NCBI GenBank assembly: GCA_977017645.1 | Contig: OZ360230.1 | Span: 121,086,001 to 121,150,000, forward strand | DNA length: 64,000 nt | Source: Torpedo marmorata | Taxonomy: Eukaryota | Direction of reading: 5' to 3' | In this document: piece by piece, positions 26,106 to 64,000 of the stretch | Layout: every line of letters begins with the position of its first letter | Numbering within the stretch: position 1 is the first letter of the stretch | Position numbers and translations under genes: made by a program | Notes under the pieces: model-generated | Told to the model about the DNA's origin: nothing | Seen by the model: only the letters and a program-made list of their open reading frames with translations | The model's database searches: none

Positions 26106-26162
26106 ACGGCCCTTTGCTTCATAACGGCCCTTCCTTCATAACGGCCTTTCATAACGACCCTT

Positions 26163-32038: not shown

Positions 32039-32095
32039 ACGGCCCTTTGCTTCATAATGGCCCTTCCTTCATAACGGCCTTTCATAATGACCCTT

Positions 32096-37347: not shown

Positions 37348-37972
37348 TTTTTTTAAAAATTAAACATTCCATATTTATTTTATAAACAACGTAACTTTAC
37401 ATGAAAACAATGTTACTTGTTCCTTTTTGTGCAACATAGAATTAAAAAAATGGTGCATAAAAACTAAAATCCTTGGCATCAAAGCAATACTGAAGACGAG
37501 ATGTTGCACAGGACAAAAACTTTAATTGCCTTTAATTAATATTAAACTATTTCATCCTTCACAGTAATGGTCTTTAAAAGGAGGTTGAATGTAGCATCCA
37601 GAAGTCATCAAGGTTTTAGATGCTCAGCCCAAAGACAGTGAGGATACAATACATCTCACAGTACAGCTTCCATCAGAATTGTTGTCCCAGTAACAGGAAC
37701 TTGCTGAGAGCAGACCAGCTCCATTCTTCTGCATTATCACAGATGTCACAATGTATTTGAACGGTTTGCCTAGTTTGTTGAGTTGACTGAGACAGAGATC
37801 CACCACACTTGTTGTCCACTGGTTAACTGCTTGGTTGATACGCATTTCCACCAATTGTAGTCTCTATTGAATCCTTAACAATACCACTGACTTCAACAAT
37901 AAATTTAGTCTATAAAAGAAATGGCACAGATTAGTTTTAGTCTTGGAAAGCTTTTGTACGTGGTAGAGATGC
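37348..37972 (-). pseudogene. DYNLT1: DYNLT1 retrocopy, frameshifted
   Basis: Near-identical to 1736-2360. Confidence 0.92.
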
Positions 37973-38029
37973 ACGGCCCTTTGCTTCATAACGGCCCTTC
38001 CTTCATAACGGCCTTTCATAACGACCCTT

Positions 38030-40591: not shown

Positions 40592-42648
40592 GACAAGTCA
40601 CTGGAGACGCCGTCGCCAGAGACCTGGGTTGAGGGAGAAGAGCTCCTTGCAGAGCCTCCCATCGCTATAAGTGCCAGCAGCAAGGCCTGCAGGAGCGACT
40701 TGAAATTGCGCCGCTCATTCCTGGTCAATACTGACTCTTTCCTCGTCCTTTTAAGGATGTTGTAAATGGACTGAACAACCCCAGGAAGAACCGACCAGCG
40801 GGCGGAAGCCAACTGGGCTTTATTCTGTCTCCCCCGGGTGTCCTCCAGGAACTCCCTCACCTCCCCCACAGTGACGACCGTGGACCCAGAACTGGGGACA
40901 AAGAGGTCTGCCAGCTCTGCTTCAAAGGAGTCCTCCTCGCCGTATCCCGTATCTTTGTCCTCCTCCAGGCAAGCACCCCCACTGGCCGACGTGCCCACTC
41001 CTGTCCGCGTGGCAGCGAGCAAGGGAGGCACTGACGCCCCTTGATCCAGGACCCCGGGTGTGGCAGGGCTTGTGCCCCCTACACCACCACTTCCCAGTAC
41101 AGGCTACTCACAGACTCTCAATGAGTCCGAACGAAGGACACGTGTTGTCTAAGTCGTACCCGCCTCCACACCCTGGTCACCCATCTTCACAGAATGAGCC
41201 GGTGACCCATGAACTGAGCGGACTGGTGACCCAGGAGCCGTCTGTCCCTCGACACGACCCCTTGCCTCGATAGAGGCCACAAACTGGGCTACCACCCCAC
41301 CGGGCGACCTTCCTCCTTCAGGTGACCCCTGGATTCTGGGGCTATCTACGTCACCGGGCGTCGCGCACTCTGGGTGCGTAACCACACCAGACGGTAGGTC
41401 CCCTCCCTCCCGCTCAGCGGAATCCCCCACCGGCTCTGGATATGTTTGCTCAGGAAGTGCTGCCCAGAAGGAGGGCAAAACACCACCCTCAAGTGGCCCT
41501 GCCGTAAAAGGGCCACCCTCTAGCTCCGGGAAGGCACTCTCCGCGCATGCGGCCTTTACCGGGGGTAAATCCCCTTCCTCAGGTTCCCCCTTTCCCTTTT
41601 CTGCGGACACGTGTCTCCTGCGCTTTGTCCCACCTACTTTCTGAGGCACAGAGACTTCCATCTCTGAGGAATCCTCAGCCTCTGACACCCCATCACCCTC
41701 CCCGACTCCCTCAGGCCCCTGTTGACCCCCAGAGACTATCGGGTCCTCTGGGTCGGGCCTGGAGAAAACCGCCGACTCCTGCTTCTCCAGAGGAGGGGCT
41801 TGGAGGTGTTTCGTCTTCCTCCGTGCCTTCCTCCCCTTTGCAGGAGTACACCCCTCCCCACTGTCCGGCCCACGCTCTTCCCCAATGCCCTTTTCCCCCA
41901 CCGCAGGAGGGACATCTCCCCCGGGGGGAGAAACAGCTGGAGGGGGGACAGCAGAAGAAGGGCCAGCTGCGCCTCCTCGCACCGTCGAGGTGGAGGCAAC
42001 AGCCCGCCGGTTAGGGCAATCCCTCCGAATGTGCCCATACCCCTTGCATTCCCGGCACCTCGGACGCCCCGTGGCCCAGTACACGGGATAAGTATTCCCC
42101 TCCACGTCCACCTGGAACTGCCCCTCAGCATCCCCTCCCCGCGCCAACTGCATAAAAACGAGCCTTTTAAAGCCATACAATGACTTATAGCCAGGTATGG
42201 CAGGCTTACGCAGCATTGGGGTGATATCCGATTTTATATCCCACAGAGATTGCAGGTGAGGGAGAATGGCTGTATCAGGAATATGGGGATACACGGCAGA
42301 CAGGACCACCTTCTGCACGCGGGCCATCACTGGCTTCACCGGTATGAAGAGCCCTCCCACCGACAGCCCCTTGGTCAGGGCCAGGGACACCTTTTTAGTG
42401 GACCGCAAGAAAAACATTGTCTTCCCGTGAATTTTATCTACCGCAACGATACCCTCCTTCCCACCTATAGTCTGAGACAGAGCTTTTAAACCGCCTTCCA
42501 GACCGATGGACGGAGGTATATTACATCGTACGGCATTTTCCAAAGTCATTAATCTGAAGGGTGACACCTTTGCAGGAGCCCCACCTCCAGGAGCTGCAAC
42601 TGCTGCGTAGGTCCGAGGGGCTGCCATCTTAGAGGTGCAGCTCGCCAT
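40588..42648 (-). pseudogene. Tx1 ORF1: 499-aa open N-terminal part (41149-42648), premature stops before the C-terminal domain
   Basis: No 4-bp deletion; C-terminal fragment 40588-41031 is in the same frame. Confidence 0.9.
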
Positions 42649-43287
42649 GATGAAAGTCCTAGGCAGTCAGTAATTATCGCACCTGCTGATATGAAACACT
42701 GTCCTTCTACCAGCGGAGCACACAATTAATCAGTTTTCCAAAAGTTTAGCAGTGCAGGGAAGGGAGTATGGTGGGAGTTTCCACAGGAATGTCTGTGCAC
42801 GGATGACTGCAACGCTCTTCTTCTCGAGCGCAGGGTATATATCCTCCTCCAAGTCAGCCCGATTCTTCTGCAGCCTCACGAGTCCCAGGAAACGTTGATG
42901 ATCTTTGTTCCCCAGTCGTCCTGAGCGAAGGTCCTCGGTTGGGACTGGGCTTTCCGATGATAAGGACCCAACTCCCACTGAAGTCCAGAAATGGCTTTGG
43001 CAATCTGCCAGCCACTGCTGCTCCACAGCACTCAGGCACAGTCAAAGACCTTGCAGTGCAAAATCTTCTTTCTTCCTCCAAAAACGACCACCGCTGGGAT
43101 GAGAATGCACTCCCACACTTTTCAGCGACCTCTGCACTTGCACTTATCAATTTTGAAAACCATAAATTCTTGGTCAACGATAGAGCTCAGGCAGTACCGC
43201 CGCTCCCACAGTGCGACCCTTCCTCCATAACGGCCCTCCCTTCATAACGACCCTTCCTTCATAACGGCTCTTCCTTCATAACGGCCC

Positions 43288-43926
43288 TTTTTTTAAAAAT
43301 TAAACATTCCATATTTATTTTATAAACAACGTAACTTTACATGAAAACAATGTTACTTGTTCCTTTTTGTGCAACATAGAATTAAAAAGATGGTGCATAA
43401 AAACTAAAATCCTTGGCATCAAAGCAATACTGAAGACGAGATGTTGCACAGGACAAAAACTTTAATTGCCTTTAATTAATATTAAACTATATCATCCTTC
43501 ACAGTAATGGTCTTTAAAAGGAGGTTGAATGTAGCATCCAGAACTCATCAAGGTTTCAGATGCTCAGCCCAAAGACAGTGAGGATACAATACATAGAATT
43601 ATTCTCCCATCTCACTACAGCTTCCATCAGAATTGTTGTCCCAGTAACAGGAACTTGCTGAGAGCAGACCAGCTCCATTCTTCTGCATTATCACAGATGT
43701 CACAATGTATTTGAACGGTTTGCCTAGTTTGTTGAGTTGACTGAGACAGAGATCCACCACACTAGTTGTCCACTGGTTAACTGCTTGGTTGATACGCATT
43801 TCCACCAATTGCAGTCTCTATTGAATCTTTAACAACAGCACTGACTTCAACAATAAATGTAGTCTATAAAAGAAATGGCACAGATTAGTTTTAGTCTTGG
43901 AAAGCTTTTGTACGTGGTAGAGATGC
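43288..43926 (-). pseudogene. DYNLT1: DYNLT1 retrocopy, second haplotype (keeps the WEN segment, different 2-bp deletion)
   Basis: aatacatagaattattctcccatctcactacag vs aatacatctcacagtacag in left copies. Confidence 0.92.
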
Positions 43927-43966
43927 ACGGCCCTTTGCTTCATAACGGCCTTTCATAACGACCCTT

Positions 43967-46526
43967 CCTCCAATCGGTAGACTCAGGACCGCCGCAGAGA
44001 CCCAGTGTTTCCTGTTGCCCCAGAAGAAGTCCACCAACTTCCTCTGGATTCACATGGCAAAGGCAGCAGGTGGGACCAAGTTGACCAACCGGTACCAAAA
44101 CATGGAAGCCACCACCTGGTTGATGACCACCACCCTGCCTCGGTAGGAAAGCACCGCAAGGAGGCCTGACCAGTGTCCCAGCAGGGCAGCGATCTTCGCC
44201 TCCAGATCCTGCCAGTTCGCCAGCCAGGTGTCCCCGGTGGGACTCAGGTGGACCCCCAAGTAGAGAAGATGTGTGGTGCTCCACGTAAATGGTTTCATCA
44301 CCTCCGGCAGGGAGTCCACCCGCCACTGACCCACCAAACGTCCAGAACATTTAGCCCAATTGATCCTGGCAGAGGACGCAGCAGAGAAGACCTGCTGGCA
44401 CTCCCGCATCCTCCGCAGGTCAACGGGGTCGGTCACCATGAGGAGCACGTCATCAGCATAGGCCGAGAGGACGACCTCCATTTCCAGCTCATGTAGAACC
44501 ATCCCCGTCAACTTCCTCCGAAGAAGACTCAGGAATGGCTCCACACAGATGGTGTACAACTGGCCAGACATGGGGCATCCCTGACGTACTCCCCTGTGAA
44601 AAGGTATGGGGCAATCAAGGATCCGTTCACTTTGATGAGACACTCTGCGGCAGAGTACAAGAGATGAATCCGGGCAACAAAGTGATGTCCGAACCCAAAA
44701 GTCTGCAGAGTACCCACTAGGTAGCTGTGGTCCACCCTATCAAATGCCTTCTCCTGATCCAGGGAGAGAAAGGCTGCTGATGTACCAGTCTCCTGGGACA
44801 GATGGATCAGGTCCTGCACCAGATAGATATTGTTCTGGATGGACCGGTCTGGGACGGTGTATGGTCAGGGTGGACAACCTGCCCCAGCACAGAGCCCAGA
44901 CGGTTGGCCAATGCCTGGGCGAAGACCTTGTAGTCCGTGCACAGGAGAGACACCGGCCGCCAGTTCTTCATCAGGCGGTGGTCTCCCTTCTTCGGCAGCA
45001 GGACCACGACGGCTCTCCGCCACGAGAGGGGCATCTCTCCGGTGGCCAGGCTCTCACCCAGGACACGTGCATAGTCCTCACCCAGGACATCCCAAAAAGA
45101 CCGGAGGAACTCAACAGTCAGGCCGACCAAGCCAGGAGACTTGCCGCTCTTGAGTTGGTGCAGGGCCAGGGACAGCTCACCCGGTGTCAGGGGAGCATCC
45201 AACCTTTCAACTGCCTCCGGATCAACCTTTGGCAGACCCTCCTATAGGACCCTGCTCGCGTCTCCATCTGACGGGTCAGATGAGAACAAGGCTCCATAAA
45301 AAGAGCGGACAGTCAGGAGGATTTCTGCCGGATTTGTGACACAGGAGCCGCTGTCAGACAGCAACTCCACCATCTGCTTCCGTATTCCCCGGCTCTTCTC
45401 CAACGAGAAGAAGAAAGGTGAGACGCGGTCCAAATCATGGAGTAGTTGGATCCGTGACCTCACGTGCGCACCTCGGGACTGCTTGAGCTGCAGGTTTCTC
45501 AACGCATCCTTCTTCCTCTGGTGCTCCTGCCACAGGAATGGATCCCCAGGGGTCAGACCGAGACGAAACAACAAGTCGAGCACCTCTCTCTCAAGCCGCC
45601 CGATCTCGGAGTTCCGGCTCTTGGTCGACCCCCTGATGTACTCCTGACACAGCAGACGAATGTGGGCCTTGCCCACATCCCACCACAGCCGCAGGGAGCA
45701 GAATTCCTCCCATTGCCCCCTCCAGGTGGTCCAGAACTCCCTGAACGAATCCTGGAATCGGTTGTCCTCCAGCAGCTGGTTGTTAAAATGCCAAAACACG
45801 GACCCCACCTGCGGGCAGGACGGAGTGAAGTCTGCCCAGACGAGATGATGGTCATAGCACGCCACCAGCCGCATGGAGGCAGCCAACACCCGGTAGACAT
45901 GCGCCCTGGAGATATACAAACGGTCAATTCGCGAGCCTCCACCTCCTCCATCCCTCCTTGAGTAAGCACAGGAGTCCGGGTGGAGGTTCCGCCAGACATC
46001 GACCATATCGAAGGAACCCACTAGCTCCCTCAGCAGCTTCACCGAGGCTCGGCAAGACCGAGGGCCAAAACGATCCCTGTCCTCGAGGGTGGAGTTAAAA
46101 TCACCCCCGAGGATAACACATTCGCCCTGGCTAAAAGAAGCCAGCAGGGCGGACACATCTCGAAACAGGTGCGCCTGTGCCGGGCCGGGCTCCGGGGCGT
46201 AAACGTTGACAAGGTGCAACGGTACGCCATCCTGGCGCACGGCCAGATGGAGCAGACGGCCTGGCACCAACTCCTGAACCGTAAGGATCTCAAGTTGGAA
46301 GGTCGGGGCCAACAAAATAGCCATCCCGCTCGAAGTGGAGCTGAGGTGACTCATGTATACCCCTCCCTCACCACTCCAGGAGCCAGGTGGATTCGTCTCC
46401 TGGACCGGTGCGTGTCTCCTGCAGGAAACTCACCGCATATCTCCCTCTCCTAAGGACCGAGAGATGGTGGAACCTGCGGAGAGACCCCCTTCCGCCGTTG
46501 ATGTTCAGGCTGGTGTCGGTAATCAT
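43967..46526 (-). pseudogene. Tx1 ORF2 (APE+RT), disrupted
   Basis: EN and RT motifs in fragments. Confidence 0.92.
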
Positions 46527-48583
46527 GACAAGTCACTGGAGACGCCGTCGCCAGAGACCTGGGTTGAGGGAGAAGAGCTCCTTGCAGAGCCTCCCATCGC
46601 TATAAGTGCCAGCAGCAAGGCCTGCAGGAGCGACTTGAAATTGCGCCGCTCATTCCTGGTCAATACTGACTCTTTCCTCGTCCTTTTAAGGATGTTGTAA
46701 ATGGACTGAACAACCCCAGGAAGAACCGACCAGCGGGCGGAAGCCAACTGGGCTTTATTCTGTCTCCCCCGGGTGTCCTCCAGGAACTCCCTCACCTCCC
46801 CCACAGTGACGACCGTGGACCCAGAACTGGGGACAAAGAGGTCTGCCAGCTCTGCTTCAAAGGAGTCCTCCTCGCCGTATCCCGTATCTTTGTCCTCCTC
46901 CAGGCAAGCACCCCCACTGGCCGACGTGCCCACTCCTGTCCGCGTGGCAGCGAGCAAGGGAGGCACTGACGCCCCTTGATCCAGGACCCCGGGTGTGGCA
47001 GGGCTTGTGCCCCCTACACCACCACTTCCCAGTACAGGCTACTCACAGACTCTCAATGAGTCCGAACGAAGGACACGTGTTGTCTAAGTCGTACCCGCCT
47101 CCACACCCTGGTCACCCATCTTCACAGAATGAGCCGGTGACCCATGAACTGAGCGGACTGGTGACCCAGGAGCCGTCTGTCCCTCGACACGACCCCTTGC
47201 CTCGATAGAGGCCACAAACTGGGCTACCACCCCACCGGGCGACCTTCCTCCTTCAGGTGACCCCTGGATTCTGGGGCTATCTACGTCACCGGGCGTCGCG
47301 CACTCTGGGTGCGTAACCACACCAGACGGTAGGTCCCCTCCCTCCCGCTCAGCGGAATCCCCCACCGGCTCTGGATATGTTTGCTCAGGAAGTGCTGCCC
47401 AGAAGGAGGGCAAAACACCACCCTCAAGTGGCCCTGCCGTAAAAGGGCCACCCTCTAGCTCCGGGAAGGCACTCTCCGCGCATGCGGCCTTTACCGGGGG
47501 TAAATCCCCTTCCTCAGGTTCCCCCTTTCCCTTTTCTGCGGACACGTGTCTCCTGCGCTTTGTCCCACCTACTTTCTGAGGCACAGAGACTTCCATCTCT
47601 GAGGAATCCTCAGCCTCTGACACCCCATCACCCTCCCCGACTCCCTCAGGCCCCTGTTGACCCCCAGAGACTATCGGGTCCTCTGGGTCGGGCCTGGAGA
47701 AAACCGCCGACTCCTGCTTCTCCAGAGGAGGGGCTTGGAGGTGTTTCGTCTTCCTCCGTGCCTTCCTCCCCTTTGCAGGAGTACACCCCTCCCCACTGTC
47801 CGGCCCACGCTCTTCCCCAATGCCCTTTTCCCCCACCGCAGGAGGGACATCTCCCCCGGGGGGAGAAACAGCTGGAGGGGGGACAGCAGAAGAAGGGCCA
47901 GCTGCGCCTCCTCGCACCGTCGAGGTGGAGGCAACAGCCCGCCGGTTAGGGCAATCCCTCCGAATGTGCCCATACCCCTTGCATTCCCGGCACCTCGGAC
48001 GCCCCGTGGCCCAGTACACGGGATAAGTATTCCCCTCCACGTCCACCTGGAACTGCCCCTCAGCATCCCCTCCCCGCGCCAACTGCATAAAAACGAGCCT
48101 TTTAAAGCCATACAATGACTTATAGCCAGGTATGGCAGGCTTACGCAGCATTGGGGTGATATCCGATTTTATATCCCACAGAGATTGCAGGTGAGGGAGA
48201 ATGGCTGTATCAGGAATATGGGGATACACGGCAGACAGGACCACCTTCTGCACGCGGGCCATCACTGGCTTCACCGGTATGAAGAGCCCTCCCACCGACA
48301 GCCCCTTAGTCAGGGCCAGGGACACCTTTTTAGTGGACCGCAAGAAAAACATTGTCTTCCCGTGAATTTTATCTACCGCAACGATACCCTCCTTCCCACC
48401 TATAGTCTGAGACAGAGCTTTTAAACCGCCTTCCAGACCGATGGACGGAGGTATATTACATTGTACGGCATTTTCCAAAGTCATTAATCTGAAGGGTGAC
48501 ACCTTTGCAGGAGCCCCACCTCCAGGAGCTGCAACTGCTGCGTAGGTCCGAGGGGCCGCCATCTTAGAGCGGCAGCTCGCCAT
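46523..48583 (-). pseudogene. Tx1 ORF1: 499-aa open part (47084-48583) plus stop-separated C-terminus
   Basis: CCHC knuckle intact. Confidence 0.9.
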
Positions 48584-49222
48584 GATGAAAGTCCTAGGCA
48601 GTCAGTAATTATCGCACCTGCTGATATGAAACACTGTCCTTCTACCAGCGGAGCACACAATTAATCAGTTTTCCAAATGTTTAGCAGTGCAGAGAAGGGA
48701 GTATGGTGGGAGTTTCCACAGGAATGTCTGTGCACGGATGACTGCAACGCTCTTCTTCTCGAGCGCAGGGTATATATCCTCCTCCAAGTCAGCCCGATTC
48801 TTCTGCAGCCTCACGAGTCCCAGGAAACGTTGATGATCTTTGTTCCCCAGTCGTCCTGAGCGAAGGTCCTCGGTTGGGACTGGGCTTTCCGATGATAAGG
48901 ACCCAACTCCCACTGAAGTCCAGAAATGGCTTTGGCAATCTGCCAGCCACTGCTGCTCCACAGCACTCAGGCACAGTCAAAGACCTTGCAGTGCAAAATC
49001 TTCTTTCTTCCTCCAAAAACGACCACCGCTGGGATGAGAATGCACTCCCACACTTTTCAGCGACCTCTGCACTTGCACTTATCAATTTTGAAAACCATAA
49101 ATTCTTGGTCAACGATAGAGCTCAGGCAGTACCGCCGCTCCCACAGTGCGACCCTTCCTCCATAACGGCCCTCCCTTCATAACGACCCTTCCTTCATAAC
49201 GGCTCTTCCTTCATAACGGCCC

Positions 49223-49861
49223 TTTTTTTTAAAATTAAACATTCCATATTTATTTTATAAACAACGTAACTTTACATGAAAACAATGTTACTTGTTCCTT
49301 TTTGTGCAACATAGAATTAAAAAGATGGTGCATAAAATCTAAAATCCTTGGCATCAAAGCAATACTGAAGACGAGATGTTGCACAGGACAAAAACTTTAA
49401 TTGCCTTTAATTAATATTAAACTATATCATCCTTCACAGTAATGGTCTTTAAAAGGAGGTTGAATGTAGCATCCAGAACTCATCAAGGTTTCAGATGCTC
49501 AGCCCAAAGACAGTGAGGATACAATACATAGAATTATTCTCCCATCTCACTACAGCTTCCATCAGAATTGTTGTCCCAGTAACAGGAACTTGCTGAGAGC
49601 AGACCAGCTCCATTCTTCTGCATTATCACAGATGTCACAATGTATTTGAACGGTTTGCCTAGTTTGTTGAGTTGACTGAGACAGAGATCCACCACACTAG
49701 TTGTCCACTGGTTAACTGCTTGGTTGATACGCATTTCCACCAATTGCAGTCTCTATTGAATCTTTAACAACAGCACTGACTTCAACAATAAATTTAGTCT
49801 ATAAAAGAAATGGCACAGATTAGTTTTAGTCTTGGAAAGCTTTTGTACGTGGTAGAGATGC
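49223..49861 (-). pseudogene. DYNLT1: DYNLT1 retrocopy, second haplotype
   Basis: As 43288-43926. Confidence 0.92.
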
Positions 49862-49901
49862 ACGGCCCTTTGCTTCATAACGGCCTTTCATAACGACCCT
49901 T

Positions 49902-52468
49902 CCTCCAATCGGTAGACTCAGGACCGCCGCAGAGACCCAGTGTTTCCTGTTGCCCCAGAAGAAGTCCACCAACTTCCTCTGGATTCACATGGCAAAGGCA
50001 GCAGGTGGGACCAAGTTGACCAACCGGTACCAAAACATGGAAGCCACCACCTGGTTGATGACCACCACCCTGCCTCGGTAGGAAAGCACCGCAAGGAGGC
50101 CTGACCAGTGTCCCAGCAGGGCAGCGATCTTCGCCTCCAGATCCTGCCAGTTCGCCAGCCAGGTGTCCCCGGTGGGACTCAGGTGGACCCCCAAGTAGAG
50201 AAGATGTGTGGTGCTCCACGTAAATGGTTTCATCACCTCCGGCAGGGAGTCCACCCGCCACTGACCCACCAAAAGTCCAGAACATTTAGCCCAATTGATC
50301 CTGGCAGAGGACACAGCAGAGAAGACCTGCTGGCACTCCCGCATCCTCCGCAGGTCAACGGGGTCGGTCACCATGAGGAGCACGTCATCAGCATAGGCCG
50401 AGAGAACGACCTCCATGTCCGGCTCACGTAGAACCATCCCCGTCAACTTCCTCCGAAGAAGACTCTTGAATGGCTCTACACAGATGGTGTACAACTGGCC
50501 AGACATGGGGCATCCCTGACGTACTCCCCTGTAGAAGGGTATGGGGGCAGTCAAGGATCCGTTCACTTTGATGAGGCACTCTGCGGCAGAGTACAAGAGC
50601 TGAATTCGGGCTACAAAGTGATGTCCGAACCCAAAAGCATGCAGAGTACCCACGAGGTAGCTGTGGTCCACCCTATCAAATTACTTCTCCTGATCCAGGG
50701 ACAGAAAGGCTGCTGATATACCAGTCTCCTGGGACAGATGGATCAGGTCCCGTACCAGATGGATATTGTCCTGGATGGACCGGTCTGGGACGGCGTATGA
50801 CTGGTCAGGGTGGACAACCTGCCCCAGCACAGAGCCCAGACGGTTGGCCAATGCCTGGGCGAAGACCTTGTAGTCCGTGCACAGGAGAGACACCGGCCGC
50901 CAGTTCTTCAACAGGCGGTGGTCTCCCTTCTTCGGCAGCAGGACCACGACGGCTCTCCGCCACGAGAGGGGCATTTCTCCGGTGGCCAGGCTCTCACACA
51001 GGACACGTGCATAGTCCTCACCCAGGACATCCCAAAAAGCCCGGAGGAACTCAACAGTCAGGCCGTCCAAGCCAGGAGACTTGCCGCTCTTGAGTTGGTG
51101 CAGGGCCAGGGACAGCTCACCCGGTGTCAGGGGAGCATCCAACCGTTCAACTGCCTCCGGATCAACCTTTGGCAGACCCTCTTATAGCACCCTGCGCGTG
51201 TCTCCATCTGACGGGTCAGATGAGAATAAGGCTCCATAAAAAGAGCGGACAGTCAGGAGAATTTCTGCCGGAATTGTGACACAGGAGCCGCTGTCAGACA
51301 GCAACTCCACCATCTGCTTCCGTATTCCCCGGCTCTTCTCCAACGAGAAGAAGAAAGGTGAGATGCGGTCCAAATCATGGAGTAGTTGGATCCGTGATCT
51401 CACGTACGCACCTCGGGACTGCTTGAGCTGCAGGTACCTCAACGCGTCCTTCTTCCTCTGGTGCTCCTGCCACAGGAGTGGATCCCCAGGGGTCAGACCG
51501 AGACGAGACTCCAAGTCAAGCACCTCTCTCTCAAGCCGCCCAATCTCGGAGTTCCGGCTCTTGGTTGACCCCCTGGTGTACACCTGACACAGCAGACGAA
51601 TGTGGGCCTTGCCCACATCCCACCACAGCCGCAGGGAGCAGAATTCCTCCCGCTGCCCCCTCCAGGTGGTCCAGAACTCCCTGAACGAATCCTGGAATCG
51701 GTTGTCCTCCAGCAGCTGGTTGTTAAAATGCCAAAACACGGACCCCACCTGCGGGCAGGATGGAGTGAACTCTGCCCAGACGAGATGGTGGTCATAGCAC
51801 GCCACCGGCGGCATGGAGGCAGCCGACACCCGGGAGACATGCACCCTGGAGATATACAAACAGTCAATTCGCGAGCCTCCCCCTCCTCCATCCCTCCTTG
51901 AGTAAGCACAGGAGTGCGGGTGGAGGTTCCGCCATACATCGACCATATCGAAGGAACCCACTAGCTCCCTCAGCAGCCTCACCGAGGCTCGGCAAGACCG
52001 AGGGCCAGAACGATCCCTGTCCTCGAGGGTGGAGTTAAAATCACCCCCGAGGATAACACATTCGCCCTGGCTAAAAGAAGCCAGCAGGGCGGACACATCT
52101 CGAAACAGGCGCGCCTGTGCCGGGCCGGGCTCCGGGGCGTAAACGTTGACAAGGTGCAACGGTACGCCATCCTGGCTCACGGCCAGATGGAGCAGACGGC
52201 CTGTCACCAACTCCTGAACCGTAAGGATCTCAGGTTGGAAGGTCGGGGCCAACAAACTAGCCACCCCGCTCGAAGTGGAGCTGAGGTGACTCATGTATAC
52301 CCCCCCTCACCACTCCAGGAGCCAGGTGGATTCGTTTCCTGGACCGGTGCGGGTCTCCTGCAGGAAACTCACCGCATATCTCCCTCTCCTAAGGACCGAG
52401 AGATGGTGGAACCTGCGGAGAGACCCCCTACCGCCGTTGATGTTCAGGCTGGCGACGGTAATCGTCAT
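49902..52468 (-). pseudogene. Tx1 ORF2 (APE+RT), interrupted mainly by nonsense codons
   Basis: Fragments 51182-52294, 50681-51142, 49985-50671. Confidence 0.92.
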
Positions 52469-54524
52469 GACAAGTCACTGGAGACTCCGTCGCCAGAGAC
52501 CTGAGTTGAGGGAGAAGAGCTCCTTGCAGAACCTCCCCTCGCTATAAGTGCCAGCAGCAAGGCCTGCAGGAGCGACTTGAAATTGTGCCGCTCATTCCTG
52601 GTCAATACTGACTCTTTCCTCGTTCTTTTAAGGATGTTGTAAATGGACTGAACAACCCCAGGAAGATCCGACCAGCGGGCGGAAGCCAACTGGGCTTTAT
52701 TCTGTCTCCCCCGGGTGTCCTCCAGGAACTCCCTCACCTCCCCCACAGTGACGACCGTGGACCCAGAACTGGGGACAAAGAGGTCTGCCAGCTCTGCTTC
52801 AAAGGAGTCCTCCTCGCCATATCCCGTATCGTTGTCCTACTCCAGGCAAGCACCCCCACTGGCCGACGTGCCCACTCCTGTCCACGTGGCAGCGAGCAAG
52901 GGAAGCCCTGACGCCCCTTGATCCAGGACCCGGGTGTGGCAGGGCTTGTGCCCCCTACACCACCACTTCCCAGTACAGGCGACTCACAGACTCTCAATGA
53001 GTCCGAACGAAGGACACGTGTTGTCTAAGTCGTACCCGCCTCCACACCCTGGTTACCCATCTTCACAGAATGAGCCGGTGACCCATGAACTGAGCGGACT
53101 GGTGACCCGAGGGGTGTCTGTCCCTCGACAGGACCCCTTGCCTCGATAGAGGCCACAAACTGGGCTACCACCCCACCGGGCGACCTTCCTCCTTCAGGTG
53201 ACCCCTGGATTCTGGGGCTATCTACGTCACCGGGCGTCGCGCACTCTGGGTGCGTAACCACACCAGACGGTAGGTCCCCTCCCTCCCGCTCAGCGGAATC
53301 CCCCACCGGCTCTGGATATGTTTGCTCAGGAAGTGCTGCCCAGAAGGAGGGCAAATCACCACCCTCAAGTGGCCCTGCCGTAACAGGGCCACCCTCTAGC
53401 TCCGGGAAGGCACTCTCCGCGCATGCGGCCTTTACCGGGGGTAAATCCCCTTCCTCAGGTTCCCCCTTTCCCTCTTCTGCGGACACGTGTCTCCTGCGCT
53501 TTGTCCCACCTACTTTCTGAGGCACAGAGACTTCCATCTCTGAGGAATCCTCGGCCTCTGACACCCCATCACCCTCCCCGACTCCCTCAGGCCCCTGTTG
53601 ACCCCCAGAGACTATCGGGTCCTCTGGGTCGGGCCTGGAGGAAACCGCCGACTCCTGCTTCTCCAGAGGAGGGGCTTGGAGGTGTTTCGTCTTCCTCCGT
53701 GCCTTCCTCCCCTTTGCAGGAGTCCACCCCTCCCCAATGTCCGGCCCACGCTCTTCCCCAATGCCCTTTTCCCCCACCGCAGGAGGGACATCTCCCCCGG
53801 GGGGAGAAACAGCTGGAGGGGGGACAGCAGAAGAAGGGCCAGCTGCGCCTCCTCGCACCGTCGAGGTGGAGGCAACAGCCCGCCGGTTAGGGCAATCCCT
53901 CCGAATGTGCCCATACCCCTTGCATTCCCGGCACCTCGGACGCCCCGTGGCCCAGTACACGGGATAAGTATTCCCCTCCACGTCCACCTGGAACTGCCCC
54001 TCAGCATCCCCTCCCCGCGCCAACTGCATAGAAACGAGCCTTTTAAAGCCATACAATGACTTATAGCCAGGTATGGCAGGCTTACGCAGCATTGGGGTGA
54101 TATCCGATTTTATATCCCCCAGAGATTGCAGGTGAGGGAGAATGGCTGTATCAGGAATATGGGGATACACGGCAGACAGGACCACCTTCTGCACGCGGGC
54201 CATCACTGGCTTCACCGGTATGAAGAGCCCTCCCATCGACAGCCCCTTACTCAGGGCCAGGGACACCTTTTTAGTGGACCGCAAGAAAAACATTGTCTTC
54301 CCGTGAATTTTATCTACCGCAACGATACCCTCCTTCCCACCTATAGTCTGAGACAGAGCTTTTAAACCGCCTTCCAGACCGATGGACGGAGGTATATTAC
54401 ATTGTACGGCATTTTCCAAAGTCATTAATCTGAAGGGTGACACCTTTGCAGGAGCCCCACCTCCAGGAGCTGCAACTGCTGCGTAGGTCCGAGGGGCTGC
54501 CATCTTAGAGGTGCAGCTCGCCAT
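52465..54524 (-). pseudogene. Tx1 ORF1: 499-aa open part (53025-54524), disrupted C-terminus
   Basis: CCHC knuckle intact. Confidence 0.9.
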
Positions 54525-55163
54525 GATGAAAGTCCTAGGCAGTCAGTAATTATCGCACCTGCTGATATGAAACACTGTCCTTCTACCAGCGGAGCACACA
54601 ATTAATCAGTTTTCCAAAAGTTTAGCAGTGCAGGGAAGGGAGTATGGTGGGAGTTTCCACAGGAATGTCTGTGCACGGATGACTGCAACGCTCTTCTTCT
54701 CGAGCGCAGGGTATATATCCTCCTCCAAGTCAGCCCGATTCTTCTGCAGCCTCACGAGTCCCAGGAAACGTTGATGATCTGTGTTCCCCAGTCGTCCTGA
54801 GCGAAGGTCCTCGGTTGGGACTGGGCTTTCCGATGATAAGGACCCAACTCCCACTGAAGTCCAGAAATGGCTTTGGCAATCTGCCAGCCACTGCTGCTCC
54901 ACAGCACTCAGGCACAGTCAAAGACCTTGCAGTGCAAAATCTTCTTTCTTCCTCCAAAAACGACCACCGCTGGGATGAGAATGCACTCCCACACTTTTCA
55001 GCGACCTCTGCACTTGCACTTATCAATTTTGAAAACCATAAATTCTTGGTCAACGATAGAGCTCAGGCAGTACCGCCGCTCCCACAGTGCGACCCTTCCT
55101 CCATAACGGCCCTCCCTTCATAACGACCCTTCCTTCATAACGGCTCTTCCTTCATAACGGCCC

Positions 55164-55802
55164 TTTTTTTTAAAATTAAACATTCCATATTTATTTTATA
55201 AACAACGTAACTTTACATGAAAACAATGTTACTTGTTCCTTTTTGTGCAACATAGAATTAAAAAGATGGTGCATAAAATCTAAAATCCTTGGCATCAAAG
55301 CAATACTGAAGACGAGATGTTGCACAGGACAAAAACTTTAATTGCCTTTAATTAATATTAAACTATATCATCCTTCACAGTAATGGTCTTTAAAAGGAGG
55401 TTGAATGTAGCATCCAGAACTCATCAAGGTTTCAGATGCTCAGCCCAAAGACAGTGAGGATACAATACATAGAATTATTCTCCCATCTCACTACAGCTTC
55501 CATCAGAATTGTTGTCCCAGTAACAGGAACTTGCTGAGAGCAGACCAGCTCCATTCTTCTGCATTATCACAGATGTCACAATGTATTTGAACGGTTTGCC
55601 TAGTTTGTTGAGTTGACTGAGACAGAGATCCACCACACTAGTTGTCCACTGGTTAACTGCTTGGTTGATACGCATTTCCACCAATTGCAGTCTCTATTGA
55701 ATCTTTAACAACAGCACTGACTTCAACAATAAATTTAGTCTATAAAAGAAATGGCACAGATTAGTTTTAGTCTTGGAAAGCTTTTGTACGTGGTAGAGAT
55801 GC
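55164..55802 (-). pseudogene. DYNLT1: DYNLT1 retrocopy, second haplotype
   Basis: As 43288-43926. Confidence 0.92.
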
Positions 55803-55842
55803 ACGGCCCTTTGCTACATAACGGCCTTTCATAACGACCCTT

Positions 55843-58408
55843 CCTCCAATCGGTAGACTCAGGACCGCCGCAGAGACCCAGTGTTTCCTGTTGCCCCAGA
55901 AGAAGTCCACCAACTTCCTCTGGATTCACATGGCAAAGGCAGCAGGTGGGACCAAGTTGACCAACCGGTACCAAAACATGGAAGCCACCACCTGGTTGAT
56001 GACCACCACCCTGCCTCGGTAGGAAAGCACCGCAAGGAGGCCTGACCAGTGTCCCAGCAGGGCAGCGATCTTCGCCTCCAGATCCTGCCAGTTCGCCAGC
56101 CAGGTGTCCCCGGTGGGACTCAGGTGGACCCCCAAGTAGAGAAGATGTGTGGTGCTCCACGTAAATGGTTTCATCACCTCCGGCAGGGAGTCCACCCGCC
56201 ACTGACCCACCAAAAGTCCAGAACATTTAGCCCAATTGATCCTGGCAGAGGACACAGCAGAGAAGACCTGCTGGCACTCCCGCATCCTCCGCAGGTCAAC
56301 GGGGTCGGTCACCATGAGGAGCACGTCATCAGCATAGGCCGAGAGAACGACCTCCATGTCCGGCTCACGTAGAACCATCCCCGTCAACTTCCTCCGAAGA
56401 AGACTCTTGAATGGCTCTACGCAGATGGTGTACAACTGGCCAGACATGGGGCATCCCTGACGTACTCCCCTGTAGAAGGGTATGGGGGCAGTCAAGGATC
56501 CGTTCACTTTGATGAGGCACTCTGCGGCAGAGTACAAGAGCTGAATTCGGGCTACAAAGTGATGTCCGAACCCAAAAGCATGCAGAGTACCCACGAGGTA
56601 GCTGTGGTCCACCCTATCAAATTACTTCTCCTGATCCAGGGACAGAAAGGCTGCTGATATACCAGTCTCCTGGGACAGATGGATCAGGTCCCGTACCAGA
56701 TGGATATTGTCCTGGATGGACCGGTCTGGGACGGCGTATGACTGGTCAGGGTGGACAACCTGCCCCAGCACAGAGCCCAGACGGTTGGCCAATGCCTGGC
56801 GAAGACCTTGTAGTCCGTGCACAGGAGAGACACCGGCCGCCAGTTCTTCAACAGGCGGTGGTCTCCCTTCTTCGGCAGCAGGACCACGACGGCTCTCCGC
56901 CACGAGAGGGGCATTTCTCCGGTGGCCAGGCTCTCACACAGGACACGTGCATAGTCCTCACCCAGGACATCCCAAAAAGCCCGGAGGAACTCAACAGTCA
57001 GGCCGTCCAAGCCAGGAGACTTGCCGCTCTTGAGTTGGTGCAGGGCCAGGGACAGCTCACCCGGTGTCAGGGGAGCATCCAACCGTTCAACTGCCTCCGG
57101 ATCAACCTTTGGCAGACCCTCTTATAGGACCCTGCGCGTGTCTCCATCTGACGGGTCAGATGAGAATAAGGCTCCATAAAAAGAGCGGACAGTCAGGAGA
57201 ATTTCTGCCGGAATTGTGACACAGGAGCCGCTGTCAGACAGCAACTCCACCATCTGCTTCCGTATTCCCCGGCTCTTCTCCAACGAGAAGAAGAAAGGTG
57301 AGATGCGGTCCAAATCATGGAGTAGTTGGATCCGTGACCTCACGTGCGCACCTCGGGACTGCTTGAGCTGCAGGTCCCTCAACGCGTCCTTCTTCCTCTG
57401 GTGCTCCTGCCACAGGAGTGGATCCCCAGGGGTCAGACCGAGACGAGACTCCAAGTCAAGCACCTCTCTCTCAAGCCGCCCAATCTCGGAGTTCCGGCTC
57501 TTGGTTGACCCCCTGGTGTACACCTGACACAGCAGACGAATGTGGGCCTTGCCCACATCCCACCACAGCCGCAGGGAGCAGAATTCCTCCCGCTGCCCCC
57601 TCCAGGTGGTCCAGAACTCCCTGAACGAATCCTGGAATCGGTTGTCCTCCAGCAGCTGGTTGTTAAAATGCCAAAACACGGACCCCACCTGCGGGCAGGA
57701 TGGAGTGAACTCTGCCCAGACGAGATGGTGGTCATAGCACGCCACCGGCGGCATGGAGGCAGCCGACACCCGGGAGACATGCACCCTGGAGATATACAAA
57801 CAGTCAATTCGCGAGCCTCCCCCTCCTCCATCCCTCCTTGAGTAAGCACAGGAGTGCGGGTGGAGGTTCCGCCATACATCGACCATATCGAAGGAACCCA
57901 CTAGCTCCCTCAGCAGCCTCACCGAGGCTCGGCAAGACCGAGGGCCAGAACGATCCCTGTCCTCGAGGGTGGAGTTAAAATCACCCCCGAGGATAACACA
58001 TTCGCCCTGGCTAAAAGAAGCCAGCAGGGCGGACACATCTCGAAACAGGCGCGCCTGTGCCGGGCCGGGCTCCGGGGCGTAAACGTTGACAAGGTGCAAC
58101 GGTACGCCATCCTGGCTCACGGCCAGATGGAGCAGACGGCCTGTCACCAACTCCTGAACCGTAAGGATCTCAGGTTGGAAGGTCGGGGCCAACAAACTAG
58201 CCACCCCGCTCGAAGTGGAGCTGAGGTGACTCATGTATACCCCCCCTCACCACTCCAGGAGCCAGGTGGATTCGTTTCCTGGACCGGTGCGGGTCTCCTG
58301 CAGGAAACTCACCGCATATCTCCCTCTCCTAAGGACCGAGAGATGGTGGAACCTGCGGAGAGACCCCCTACCGCCGTTGATGTTCAGGCTGGCGACGGTA
58401 ATCGTCAT
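55843..58408 (-). pseudogene. Tx1 ORF2 (APE+RT), disrupted
   Basis: As copy 9 plus a 1-bp deletion near 56798. Confidence 0.92.
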
Positions 58409-60464
58409 GACAAGTCACTGGAGACTCCGTCGCCAGAGACCTGAGTTGAGGGAGAAGAGCTCCTTGCAGAACCTCCCCTCGCTATAAGTGCCAGCAGCAA
58501 GGCCTGCAGGAGCGACTTGAAATTGTGCCGCTCATTCCTGGTCAATACTGACTCTTTCCTCGTTCTTTTAAGGATGTTGTAAATGGACTGAACAACCCCA
58601 GGAAGATCCGACCAGCGGGCGGAAGCCAACTGGGCTTTATTCTGTCTCCCCCGGGTGTCCTCCAGGAACTCCCTCACCTCCCCCACAGTGACGACCGTGG
58701 ACCCAGAACTGGGGACAAAGAGGTCTGCCAGCTCTGCTTCAAAGGAGTCCTCCTCGCCATATCCCGTATCGTTGTCCTACTCCAGGCAAGCACCCCCACT
58801 GGCCGACGTGCCCACTCCTGTCCACGTGGCAGCGAGCAAGGGAAGCCCTGACGCCCCTTGATCCAGGACCCGGGTGTGGCAGGGCTTGTGCCCCCTACAC
58901 CACCATTTCCCAGTACAGGCGACTCACAGACTCTCAATGAGTCCGAACGAAGGACACGTGTTGTCTAAGTCGTACCCGCCTCCACACCCTGGTTACCCAT
59001 CTTCACAGAATGAGCCGGTGACCCATGAACTGAGCGGACTGGTGACCCGAGGGGTGTCTGTCCCTCGACAGGACCCCTTGCCTCGATAGAGGCCACAAAC
59101 TGGGCTACCACCCCACCGGGCGTCCTTCCTCCTTCAGGTGACCCCTGGATTCTGGGGCTATCTACGTCACCTGGCGTCGCGCACTCTGGGTGCGTAACCA
59201 CACCAGACGGTAGGTCCCCTCCCTCCCGCTCAGCGGAATCCCCCACCGGCTCTGGATATGTTTGCTCAGGAAGTGCTGCCCAGAAGGAGGGCAAATCACC
59301 ACCCTCAAGTGGCCCTGCCGTAACAGGGCCACCCTCTAGCTCCGGGAAGGCACTCTCCGCGCATGCGGCCTTTACCGGGGCTAAATCCCCTTCCTCAGGT
59401 TCCCCCTTTCCCTCTTCTGCGGACACGTGTCTCCTGCGCTTTGTCCCACCTACTTTCTGAGGCACAGAGACTTCCATCTCTGAGGAATCCTCGGCCTCTG
59501 ACACCCCATCACCCTCCCCGACTCCCTCAGGCCCCTGTTGACCCCCAGAGACTATCGGGTCCTCTGGGTCGGGCCTGGAGGAAACCGCCGACTCCTGCTT
59601 CTCCAGAGGAGGGGCTTGGAGGTGTTTCGTCTTCCTCCGTGCCTTCCTCCCCTTTGCAGGAGTCCACCCCTCCCCAATGTCCGGCCCACGCTCTTCCCCA
59701 ATGCCCTTTTCCCCCACCGCAGGAGGGACATCTCCCCCGGGGGGAGAAACAGCTGGAGGGGGGACAGCAGAAGAAGGGCCAGCTGCGCCTCCTCGCACCG
59801 TCGAGGTGGAGGCAACAGCCCGCCGGTTAGGGCAATCCCTCCGAATGTGCCCATACCCCTTGCATTCCCGGCACCTCGGACGCCCCGTGGCCCAGTACAC
59901 GGGATAAGTATTCCCCTCCACGTCCACCTGGAACTGCCCCTCAGCATCCCATCCCCGCGCCAACTGCATAGAAACGAGCCTTTTAAAGCCATACAATGAC
60001 TTATAGCCAGGTATGGCAGGCTTACGCAGCATTGGGGTGATATCCGATTTTATATCCCCCAGAGATTGCAGGTGAGGGAGAATGGCTGTATCAGGAATAT
60101 GGGGATACACGGCAGACAGGACCACCTTCTGCACGCGGGCCATCACTGGCTTCACCGGTATGAAGAGCCCTCCCATCGACAGCCCCTTACTCAGGGCCAG
60201 GGACACCTTTTTAGTGGACCGCAAGAAAAACATTGTCTTCCCGTGAATTTTATCTACCGCAACGATACCCTCCTTCCCACCTATAGTCTGAGACAGAGCT
60301 TTTAAACCGCCTTCCAGACCGATGGACGGAGGTATATTACATTGTACGGCATTTTCCAAAGTCATTAATCTGAAGGGTGACACCTTTGCAGGAGCCCCAC
60401 CTCCAGGAGCTGCAACTGCTGCGTAGGTCCGAGGGGCTGCCATCTTAGAGCGGCAGCTCGCCAT
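58405..60464 (-). pseudogene. Tx1 ORF1: 499-aa open part (58965-60464), disrupted C-terminus
   Basis: CCHC knuckle intact. Confidence 0.9.
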
Positions 60465-61026
60465 GATGAAAGTCCTAGGCAGTCAGTAATTATCGCATCT
60501 GCTGATATGAAACACTGTCCTTCTACCAGCGGAGCACACAATTAATCAGTTTTCCAAATGTTTAGCAGTGCAGGGAAGGGAGTATGGTGGGAGTTTCCAC
60601 AGGAATGTCTGTGCACTGATGACTGCAACGCTCTTCTTCTCGAGCGCAGGGAATATATCCTCCGAGTCAGCCCGATTCTTCTGCAGCCTCACGAATCCCA
60701 GGAACCGTTGATGATCTTCGTTCCCCAGTCGTCCTGAGCGAAGGTCCTCGGTTGGGTGTGGGCTTTCCGATGATAAGGACCCAACTCCCACTGAAGTCCA
60801 GAAATGGTTTTGGCAATCTGCCAGCCACTGCTGCTCCACAGCACTCAGGCACAGTCAAAGACCTTGCAGTGCAAAATCTTCTTTCTTCCTCCAAAAACGA
60901 CCACCGCTGGGATGAGAATGCACTCCCACACTTTTCAGCGACCTCTGCACTTGCACTTATCAATTTTGAAAATCATAAATTCTTGGTCAACCATAGAGCT
61001 CAGGCAGTACCGCCGCTCCCACAGTG

Positions 61027-61100
61027 CGACCCTTCCTCCATAACGGCCCTCCCTTCATAACGACCCTTCCTTCATAACGGCCCTTCCTTCATAACGGCCC
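61027..61100. repeat. 17-bp minisatellite, 4 units
   Basis: cgaccc followed by 4 x ttccttcataacgRccc-type units. Confidence 0.95.
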
Positions 61101-61743
61101 TTTTTTTAAAAATTAAACATTCCATATTTATTTTATAAACAGCGTAACTTTACATGAAAACAATGTTACTTGTTCCTTTTTGTGCAACATAGAATTAAAA
61201 AGATGGTGCATAAAAACTAAAATCCTTGGCATCAAAGCAATACTGAAGACGAGATGTTGCACAGGACAAAAACTTTAATTGCCTTTAATTAATATTAAAC
61301 TATATCATCCTTCACAGTAATGGTCTTTAAAAGGAGGTTGAATGTAGCATCCAGAAGTCATCAAGGTTTTAGATACTCAGCCCAAAGACAGTGACAATAC
61401 AATACATTGTATTCTCCCATCTCACAGTACAGCTTCCATCAGAATTGTTGTCCCAGTAACAGGAACTTACTGAGAGCAGACCAGCTCCATTCTTCTGCAT
61501 TATCACAGATGTCACAATGTATTTGAACGGTTTGCCTAGTTTGTTGAGTTGACTGAGACAGAGATCCACCACACTAGTTGCCCACTGGTGAACTCTGCTT
61601 GGTTGATACGCATTTCCACCAATTGCAGTCTCTATTGATTCTTTAATAATACCACTTACTTCATCAACAATAAATGTAGTCAATAAAAGAAATGGCACAG
61701 ATTAGTTTTAGTCTTGGAAAGCTTTTGTACGTGGGAGAGATGC
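61101..61743 (-). pseudogene. DYNLT1: DYNLT1 retrocopy, in frame from about codon 10 to the stop (61680-61369), lacking exon 1; 3'UTR, AATAAA (61127-61132), A7
   Basis: [26 protein letters not shown]...[11 protein letters not shown]...[23 protein letters not shown] matches DYNLT1 rather than DYNLT3. Confidence 0.95.
61681..61710 (-). promoter_or_regulatory. Retained intron 3' end: branch point ACTAAT + pyrimidine tract + acceptor (TAG in array copies, TTG here)
   Basis: Minus strand ...aaaactaatctgtgccatttcttttatAG|ACT.. in array copies, immediately before the T-x-F codons. Confidence 0.75.
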
Positions 61744-61922
61744 ACGGCGCTGTGCTTCATAACGGCCCTGTGCTTCATAACGGCCCTTCCTTCGTAATGG
61801 CCCTTCCTTCATAACGACCCTTCCTTCATAACGACCCTTCCTCCATAACGACCCTTCCTTCTTAACGACCCTTCCTTCATAACGACCCTTCCTTCATAAC
61901 GACCCTTCCTTCATAACGGCCC
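61744..61922. repeat. 17-bp minisatellite, 10 units (first two are an 18-bp variant tgtgcttcataacggccc)
   Basis: Units read directly from 61751 to 61922. Confidence 0.97.
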
Positions 61923-61964
61923 TTTTTTTTGGAAAAATATTCTTTATTTCTCTAAAACATCAAG

Positions 61965-64000
61965 TTAAACAAACAACGACAAGACATGAAACACAAGACA
62001 ACCGTACAACAATATTAAAATGTTTCCATCCCCATCTATGATGGAGTGTACACCCCGCGGTGCCCAGCGCTCCCGAAACTCTTCTATGGTTCCCGTGGAC
62101 AGCGCATGTTACATTTGGAAAGATGGCATACAGAATTGTGTTCATGTATATCACTCGAAAAAATTACATATAATTTACGCGATAAATATCATTGCTTTTT
62201 GAAAGTATGGAGCCCAAATATAAAAACTGTTGGTTTAAGGATTTGAAGATCACTGGACATCGGATCTGACTGGCGAACCTATCCTCCACAATAAAATCAG
62301 TTTATAGTTGTTCTTTTTAGATTGACATTCTCCTCACTCTATCTTGTTTTTCTTCTTTCTTTTCAGGAGGGGAGGGAGGGGGGGGGGGTGAAAATGTATC
62401 ACATGTAATTTGATAAATTTGCATTTTAAACTGTGTACTGTGTGATTTAAAAATTTTAAATAAAATATTTTTTTTTAAAAGACACCCGGGCCCGATCTTA
62501 CCCCCGGAAGATGTCCAGTGCGTCATTGCAGGAGGAGCCCTGAGCCGCTTGTTTCCAGGAGCCACGGATGGAGAGTTTGGCCAGGCCCAGGAGTAAGGCG
62601 ACCAGGACATTCCCCTCCCTTCCCGCCCCCTTCCTCACTGGGTGGCCAAAGATAAAGAGGCTAGGGCTGAAATGTAACCAGAATGCGAGGAGCAGCCCCT
62701 TCAGAAAGGCAGAGAGGGGCTGCAACCACACACACCCCATGTACATGTGGTACGCGGTCTCCTCCAGCCCGCAGAAGTGGCACGCAGCTGGGAGACCCGT
62801 GAATCGGCTCAGAAATTTGTTACAGGGCACCGCTTGGTGTAATACCCTCCACCCCAGGTCCCCGATGTACAAGGGCAGGATCCCTGCATCGAGCGACCAC
62901 CACTGGGGTCCCCCCTGATTGGCAGATGGCAACACCGAGCGCCAGGGCGTGTCTAGCCGGTGAACCAGGGCAAGGAAGTGGAAGGTATGGAGCAGTCACC
63001 CGTACAGGAACTTCCTCCCCGCCACTCGGAATGGCACAGTGGGTGTTGACGAGAGATGGCTCAGATTGTGCGGGGCAGGTTCGCGGATGAGACACCGGGG
63101 CCTTGGTCCAACGAGCAACTCCGGCTGAGCGGAGGTGAGCCCAGCCGGAATCACTTCCCCCACCCTGACCGTCCCTTCCCCCGATGAAGGAGGGCTGGGG
63201 CGGGTTGTTCTCCCGGCCGGGACACAACTCCCCGCTGGTGGAGGAGGGTCTTGGCCGGAGGCAACAATGTTCCAGACTTTCAGTAGGTCCCGGTAATAGC
63301 TGGGCAACCCCTGCAGAGCAGCACGGCTGACTCCCGTCGGCGGTGGCCATGTGCCCTCATGAAGGCAGCGGCCCCGTCGGAGAAAGTACGTGGCCAGCAC
63401 GTGCCACCTGGGAGGAAGCTCACCATACAGGAATCTCTGCAGTGTCCTAAGGCGGAGGGCCGCTAACTGCGTACGCATACACACCAGCGACTGTCCGCCC
63501 CCTCCAATTGGTAGACTCAGGACTGCCGCAGAGACCCAGTGTTTCCTGTTGCCCCAGAAGAAGTCCACCAACTTCCTCTGGATTCTCATGGCAAAAGCAG
63601 CAGGTGGGACCAAGGTGACCAACCGGTACCATAACATGGAGACCACCAGCTGGTTGATGACCACCACCCTGCCTCGGTAGGAAAGCACCCCAAGGAGGCC
63701 TGAGCAGTGTCCCAGCTGGGCAGCGATCTTCGCCTCCAGATCCTGCCAGTTCGCCAGCCAGATGTCCCCGGTGGGACTCAGGTCGACCCCCAAGTAGAGA
63801 AGATGTGTGGTGCTCCACGTGAATGGTTTCATCACCTCCGGCAGGGAGTCCACCCGCCACTGACCCACCAAAAGTCCAGAACATTTAGCCCAATTGATCC
63901 TGGCAGAGGACGCAGCAGAGAAGACCTGCTGGCACTCCCGCATCCTCCGCAGGTCAACGGGGTCGGTCACCATGAGGAGCACGTCATCAGCATAGGCCGA
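61965..64000 (-). pseudogene. Tx1 ORF2 C-terminal half; in-frame stops at 62996 and 62498, interrupted by an insertion
   Basis: ORFs 62996-63982 and 62498-62935 are in one frame; HALSTGTIEEFRERWAPRGVHSIIDGDGNIL resumes below about 62109. Confidence 0.88.
62111..62480 (+). mobile_element. 5'-truncated L1-clade LINE 3' fragment inserted antisense into Tx1 ORF2
   Basis: HLERWHTELCSCISLEKITYNLRDKYHCFLKVWSP resembles the C-terminus of non-mammalian L1 ORF2; AT-rich 3'UTR with G-tract (62366-62388), AATAAA 62459-62464. Confidence 0.75.

Follow-up and report, generated by a model that had tools for sequence, protein, structure and literature searches.

In this study, we analyzed a window of 64,000 nucleotides from Torpedo marmorata, in which a Tx1 retrotransposon and a retrocopy of DYNLT1 are both joined to a minisatellite with a 17-bp unit (hereafter the 17-mer). 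The features of the window are as follows:

1..61789, minus strand: tandem array with a unit of ~5.94 kb, made up of 17-mer repeats, a DYNLT1 copy, 17-mer repeats and a 3′-deleted Tx1
55843..61026, minus strand: Tx1 copy with an intact 5′ end, a target-like head of ~22 nt (61005-61026) and its last ~1.57 kb deleted; it contains ORF1 (58965-60482), an APE piece (57122-58246) and an RT piece (55926-56621), ORF2 being broken
61027..61100, minus strand: array of four 17-mer units and six further bases, of which the final 23 bases are the putative Tx1 target duplication
61101..61754, minus strand: DYNLT1 retrocopy, with the last 74 nt of intron 1 of the parent (61681-61754), spliced exons 2-5 (frame 61369-61680), 3′ UTR and poly(A)
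61755..61922, minus strand: 17-bp minisatellite of ~10 units, a local target-like array that includes a slipped duplicate of the retrocopy head
61923..64000, minus strand: 3′ part of a Tx1 copy with its poly(A) tail (61923-61930), running past the window to G000:C42:121154653
62115..62480, plus strand: tail of another abundant LINE (4975 candidates genome-wide) nested in the Tx1 3′ region and used below as the control family

The array of the window is part of a ~147-kb subterminal tandem array (G000:C42:121064810-121212007) close to the end of the contig; its paralogue at C53:67454955-67482815 is bordered by the same unique sequences. Each junction occurs 11 times in the window, but these repeats are copies, 96-99% alike, of a single 5.94-kb unit, and the window therefore holds two events, namely one Tx1 insertion and one DYNLT1 insertion. 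The last ~1.57 kb of the element is absent from 10 of the 11 Tx1 units of the array.

The 3′ junctions were as the preliminary description had given them: on the minus strand, the poly(A) tails of Tx1 (61923-61930) and DYNLT1 (61101-61107) join the 17-mer at the same phase, and the Tx1 5′ junction at 61027/61026, which joins the 17-mer six bases into a unit, is likewise present. The DYNLT1 5′ junction had been misplaced, because the intron of the parent gene matches a further stretch that was earlier counted as 17-mer; the true junction lies at 61755/61754, with a slipped duplicate at 61773/61772. As for the target duplications suggested at that time, the one of about 23 bp held up for Tx1, whereas that of the DYNLT1 copy is 14 bp (modulo 17) and not 6-7 bp.

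The 17-mer had been taken for the target of the family, and a genome-wide map of it speaks against this, since no occurrence was found apart from the locus and its duplicates (C42, C53, C748). Specifically, exact searches of the genome recovered 47 matches of the 17-mer dimer, only on these three contigs and all tied to duplicates of this locus, and 16 matches of the poly(A)-17-mer junction, all inside the C42 and C53 arrays.

Several further rearrangements were observed in and around the arrays. One 17-mer array (G000:C42:121180852-121182452) has grown to 94 units (1.6 kb), compared with 2-10 in its sister arrays. An insert of ~11 kb (L051, L052; C42:121190748-121201584) with open frames of 1323 and 620 aa breaks one Tx1 unit of the C42 array, and a frame of 1351 aa (L053) lies just outside it; both are probably LTR-type elements. 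In the duplicates at C53:66.79-66.81 Mb and on C748 (L180, L181, L183), Tx1 stops after ~1.3 kb and is followed by a long coding-like tandem repeat.

The Tx1 element and its relatives

Pfam searches with the window pieces identified an APE domain (PF03372, 27.1 bits) and an RT domain (PF00078, 68.1 bits), the RT match rising to 121.7 bits in copy L260. ORF1 encodes 505 aa, in which a zf-CCHC match reached 19.3 bits, below the cut-off of 20.8, and no Pfam family was found on the whole of ORF1. No intact ORF2 was present among the Tx1 copies examined, and dispersed copies are ~92-96% identical to the window copy. The closest named protein is ORF2 of Xenopus laevis Tx1L (YTX2_XENLA, P0129), with 53% identity over a 702-aa piece, 59% over the RT part and 45% over the 374-aa APE-containing frame of the window, while an L1-like RT found in this genome is 33% identical. 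A stingray protein is 81% identical to the element. In the RT tree, this Tx1 family (family A), a second coding family (family C, 72% RT identity to the former) and the stingray protein formed a clade (95/99), the link of which to the Tx1L-turtle-sturgeon clade was left unresolved. Copies of the family have poly(A) 3′ ends and are 5′-truncated, as in the Tx1 clade. Given its APE and RT domains, an RT closest to Tx1L, poly(A) ends and 5′ truncation, the element is a non-LTR retrotransposon of the Tx1 clade.

In addition, the first ~22 bases of the element mimic a half-unit of the target described below. The same target-like head and insertion site were found in family B (L250, L253, L163, L167, L249, L251), which is non-autonomous, ~1.45 kb long and without RT, and which has some similarity to the ORF2 C-terminus. 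Separately, a 5′-truncated Tx1 has been amplified 18 times (L278 and 17 similar loci on C23, C47 and small scaffolds) as part of a repeat whose unit includes a histone 3′ stem-loop.

Insertion sites in a dispersed 33-bp minisatellite

The Tx1 family has at least 540 candidates in the genome, and both of our end samples are exact-pattern subsets of it. For 3′ ends, 71 exact-pattern matches were collapsed to 51 events (18 copies of the histone-cluster repeat with one flank and three paralogue pairs), and for 5′ ends, 26 exact matches were collapsed to 23 (four duplicates of the window locus); 25 of 26 control LINE loci could be parsed. The reference unit was taken from L176, and a 3′ end was assigned to it at a threshold of at least 16/20.

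At this threshold, 14 of the 51 independent 3′ ends matched a 33-bp unit (17+16), all on one strand, ten at phases 0-2 (the start of the first half-unit) and four at phases 17-18 (where the second half-unit starts). Including one gapped variant raises the count to 15, two of which do not lie in true arrays (L199, in a spacer between tandem copies, and L118, in the head of another copy). None of 3000 random positions reached 16/20, and the control LINE had none of its 25 3′ ends in the 33-bp repeat (Fisher p=0.0016). When minisatellites of any kind are counted, 19 of 51 Tx1 3′ ends start in one, vs 0 of 25 for the control. At the 5′ side, 21 of 23 ends fall in the 33-bp family (17 at identical phase), one in the 17-mer and one elsewhere, with five of the 21 within 1.6 Mb on C2 and their independence thus possibly partial. 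Conversely, all 14 poly(A)-target junctions recovered from the target side are of Tx1 type (seven of this family, one of family C, six of family B), and one match was obtained when poly(A) joined to the second half-unit was searched for.

The 33-bp minisatellite forms free-standing dispersed arrays, 0.3-5.5 kb long, in which the period is 30-34 and the sub-period 16-17. An 18-mer of the unit has 11,566 exact matches genome-wide and is exact in 118 of 492 units of 10 arrays, from which the repeat was roughly estimated at ~0.03% of the genome, a lower bound. The enrichment of insertions would therefore exceed 100-fold even if this estimate were ten times too low.

These results demonstrated a preference for the 33-bp minisatellite and not a strict specificity. 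The claim that this is a Tx1 family with a target preference and an unfamiliar target was thus upheld, and the flanks of other copies proved not to be random; the 17-mer, however, accounts for only one of the 51 3′ ends and one of the 23 5′ ends, both from duplicates of the window locus, and strictness is refuted by the 36 of 51 independent 3′ ends outside the 33-bp family. Ten of these 36 lie in other minisatellites, the 17-mer included; the nine others have units of 16-38 bp (L208, L210, L217, L225, L229, L232, L107, L108, L120), and the 38-bp unit of L217 is a relative of the 33-bp unit. The bias may thus partly come from an affinity for G-rich tandem repeats in general, or from the survival of copies in them. 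The 17-mer resembles the 33-bp half-unit at 12 of 17 positions in phase (p~0.004 by shuffling), a similarity that may have arisen by descent or by convergence.

Where both ends could be paired and the 5′ side lay in the target, the 3′ side also lay in it in 20 of 23 copies by hand tally and in non-target sequence in the other three. Copies L173, L179, L182, L330 and L333 have the same local repeat variant on both sides, which indicates that the arrays existed before insertion. The duplication is 22-23 bp at sites whose flank departs from the sequence of the element head (the window, L251) and in a tandem-copy spacer (L174); in truncated off-target copies it is variable (about 7-14 bp) or absent. 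Copies L171 and L173 are joined half a unit out of phase, and 5′-truncated copies without the head also occur in the target (L116, L121). Two independent nested insertions (L188, L326) were also observed at one target-like ORF1 site of another copy, at element positions ~752-762.

The target did not prove to be an RNA gene of the kind used by Keno, Mutsu and Dewa (U2, 5S, tRNA), with no Rfam match in the four target-array loci and no tRNA gene in the eight loci scanned. As a check for a DNA-transposon context, the flanks of 10 arrays were compared; they share only a few short pairwise matches and no end common to all. A lead-in sequence is common to two arrays, and a pattern built from them led to two further loci, in one of which it is then followed by a single decayed unit. 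The unit core was also found in a shared context at seven loci, where it occurs once within a dispersed SINE-like repeat of old age (loci holding the core: L345-L351, L344), and TRF detected no 33-bp-type array in the two of the seven that were checked. Pairwise comparison of these seven loci showed homology reaching past the search pattern (z>3) on the upstream side of the unit in 5 of 21 pairs and on the downstream side in 4 of 21. A lead-in profile gave hits at E<0.05 on three of the 45 array flanks, two of these hits being circular, vs 1 of 182 controls; the downstream profile matched no array flank, and a DNA search with one array lead-in recovered only itself. Taken together, the sequence comparisons lend moderate support to a likely origin of the 33-bp unit from an old SINE. 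Neither profile matches at the 17-mer locus, and the analysis thus gives no support for deriving the 17-mer itself from a SINE.

The SINE-like repeat is a candidate DeuSINE and may resemble the shark member of that superfamily (SacSINE1). The DeuSINE superfamily, shark SacSINE1 included, is named in PMC4824008.

Proposed mechanism and competing explanations

Our favored reading, to which we assign a probability of about 0.8, is that this Tx1 family sits preferentially at one phase of the dispersed 33-bp minisatellite, likely through nicking by its APE endonuclease, and that the 17-mer is a local look-alike which received one element insertion and likely one DYNLT1 insertion by the same machinery. 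In TPRT, an established mechanism, a nick primes copying from the poly(A) tail. According to this scheme, the APE endonuclease would cut the C-rich strand where one or the other half-unit begins, and the nick would prime reverse transcription at the poly(A) tail of the element. Full-length copies start 22-23 bases further along the target, where the ~22-nt head, mimicking the next target half-unit, may help the 5′ end to anneal. Head-assisted joining of this kind would leave full-length copies almost only in target arrays and off-target copies mostly 5′-truncated, and annealing would also allow joining half a unit out of phase, as in L171 and L173. Such out-of-phase joins, together with the variable off-target duplications, suggest that the 22-23 bp may reflect the start of the RNA as much as a second nick. 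The autonomous family C and the non-autonomous family B presumably use the same site. At the window locus, the structure of the array suggests that the cassette of Tx1 and retrocopy was multiplied when the 17-mer arrays on its two sides underwent unequal crossing-over.

Three other explanations were weighed against this reading. The union of two different inserts with the 17-mer at one phase would be expected of a family specific for the 17-mer itself, but the confinement of the 17-mer to the locus and its duplicates, and its single occurrence in each end sample, refute it as the main target and make such specificity extremely improbable. An alternative is that a weak, L1-like nicking activity (A, then G-rich) combined with passive build-up in harmless G-rich tandem repeats, the 33-bp unit not being recognized at all. 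Off-target junctions do begin with G in 24, 20 and 20 of 36 cases at positions 1-3, and the ten off-target ends in other minisatellites agree with this as well; we nevertheless regard it as unlikely, because the target junctions are on one strand and at two phases only, three families insert at the same base, none of the 25 control LINE ends lies in a minisatellite of any kind, and the insertion site in ORF1 is recurrent.

It is also conceivable that the element co-transcribes target units at its 5′ end and so spreads the minisatellite, its copies being placed by homology-driven recombination and not by an endonuclease. The unit-like head, the 5′ flanks of L299, L304 and L305, which hold only 1-2 units, and the three paired copies with target on the 5′ side only could all be understood in this way. 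Local variants agree on both sides in several copies, however, the 17-mer locus included; truncated copies that lack the head are also in the target; and the single units inside the old dispersed repeat give the minisatellite another origin, so that we consider placement by recombination very improbable.

Preferential insertion by an APE-encoding family has precedents. Xenopus Tx1L makes a duplication of about 23 bp, and the present family is like Tx1L of X. laevis in its two-ORF APE-RT layout and in that both insert into a repeated sequence at a constant position. According to an excerpt of PMC4494074, the target of Tx1L is the non-autonomous piggyBac Tx1D, unlike the free-standing 33-bp minisatellite used here by ~30% of copies. 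Target preferences of the Tx1 clade for RNA genes, microsatellites, satellites and transposons are documented in the available parts of PMC4494074 and PMC3812793, and the legend to Fig. 3 of the former lists satellites among Tx1 targets. The same excerpt calls a Tx1 family specific when one sequence type makes up more than 20% of its flanks, a level that the 33-bp repeat exceeds at both ends (15/51 at 3′, 21/23 at 5′). Kibi, Koshi, the crocodilian microsatellite Tx1 families and Tx1-Mar with SINEU share with our family an incomplete preference for purine/pyrimidine-skewed tandem repeats, and systems of the Tx1-Mar/SINEU type also have non-autonomous partners at the same site (excerpts of PMC4494074, PMC3812793). 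In the same excerpts, however, the targets of these families are units of 2-4 bp or DNA transposons, in contrast to 33 bp here, and a cellular mRNA copied into such a target, like DYNLT1 here, is not described. Two fish pol-like proteins (P0144, P0202), given without family names, have only 45-46% RT identity to this family. No description of the 33-bp target or of this Tx1 family was found in the literature searched, and Repbase or the supplements of PMC4494074 may already list the target. Site preference is thus known Tx1 behavior, working as in Tx1L or Koshi, and the 33-bp target appears to be new.

The 33-bp minisatellite, likely SINE-derived, adds to the catalogue of Tx1 targets. Moreover, the three families sharing one site, the phases of both half-units and the degenerate 17-mer, itself struck twice, provide a natural series for studying how APE reads DNA, and the target-like head offers a test of the role of 5′ homology in full-length integration.

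The DYNLT1 retrocopy and its diverged duplicates

The parent DYNLT1 gene is located at C11:151653751-151696327. The window retrocopy contains a Tctex-1 frame by Pfam; it keeps 74 nt of the 393-nt intron 1 together with the acceptor, lacks introns 2-4 and has its poly(A) after the natural signal. It is hence a truncated copy of a partly spliced RNA, a processed retrocopy. Since it shares its phase in the 17-mer with Tx1, mobilization by Tx1 proteins is likely, in what was a single event. The copy is a host mRNA that landed at a preferred site of a LINE, and if its fast-evolving copies described below are expressed, a new gene would have been made in this way.

Four diverged duplicates, each the first in its array, were identified at C53:66790180, C53:66804664, C53:67455298 and C748:531580. 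In three of them the Tctex-1 frame is open and its phase agrees with that of the acceptor (L266:4231-4542; L267:4645-4956; G000:C53:67455366-67455677), and the fourth has a stop, the survival of open frames by chance being ~9%. In L266, the bases that differ from the parent number 66 out of 315 in coding vs 17 out of 287 in non-coding sequence (p=5e-8), and this duplicate has 56 unique changes vs 8 in an array pseudogene copy (p=6e-10), with 34 amino-acid changes; for the duplicate at C53:67455298, the unique changes are 39 vs 9. The diverged retrocopy has a dN of 0.22 and a dS of 0.34, synonymous change being raised as well. A search for a donor paralogue found none. At 0.5-2.4 kb upstream, the diverged copies are preceded by a CpG-rich stretch that is not that of the parent and that contains an ATG and a possible splice donor, the latter weak. 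One small-share RNA run yielded parent-like contigs only, which says nothing on the retrogene. From these substitution patterns, the diverged duplicates are possibly a new retrogene under positive selection. Points against this are the raised synonymous change, the ~9% chance survival of an open frame and the weakness of the donor.

We tentatively suggest a fuller scenario, with the odds somewhat against it. A shark and ray Tx1 lineage, specialized on a SINE-born minisatellite by means of a target-mimicking head, would have placed a half-spliced DYNLT1 transcript with its acceptor in an array resembling the target, with a CpG-rich promoter and an ATG exon immediately upstream. The resulting spliced Tctex-1 retrogene would then have been positively selected and amplified, a vertebrate parallel to the amplified sperm dynein genes.

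In addition, intron 2 of the parent (L261:3132-3218, 87 nt), either a non-canonical one, an allelic form or the product of an assembly error, has GT-GG ends in the assembled sequence, and a contig of RNA run X1 and the retrocopy are both joined exactly there.
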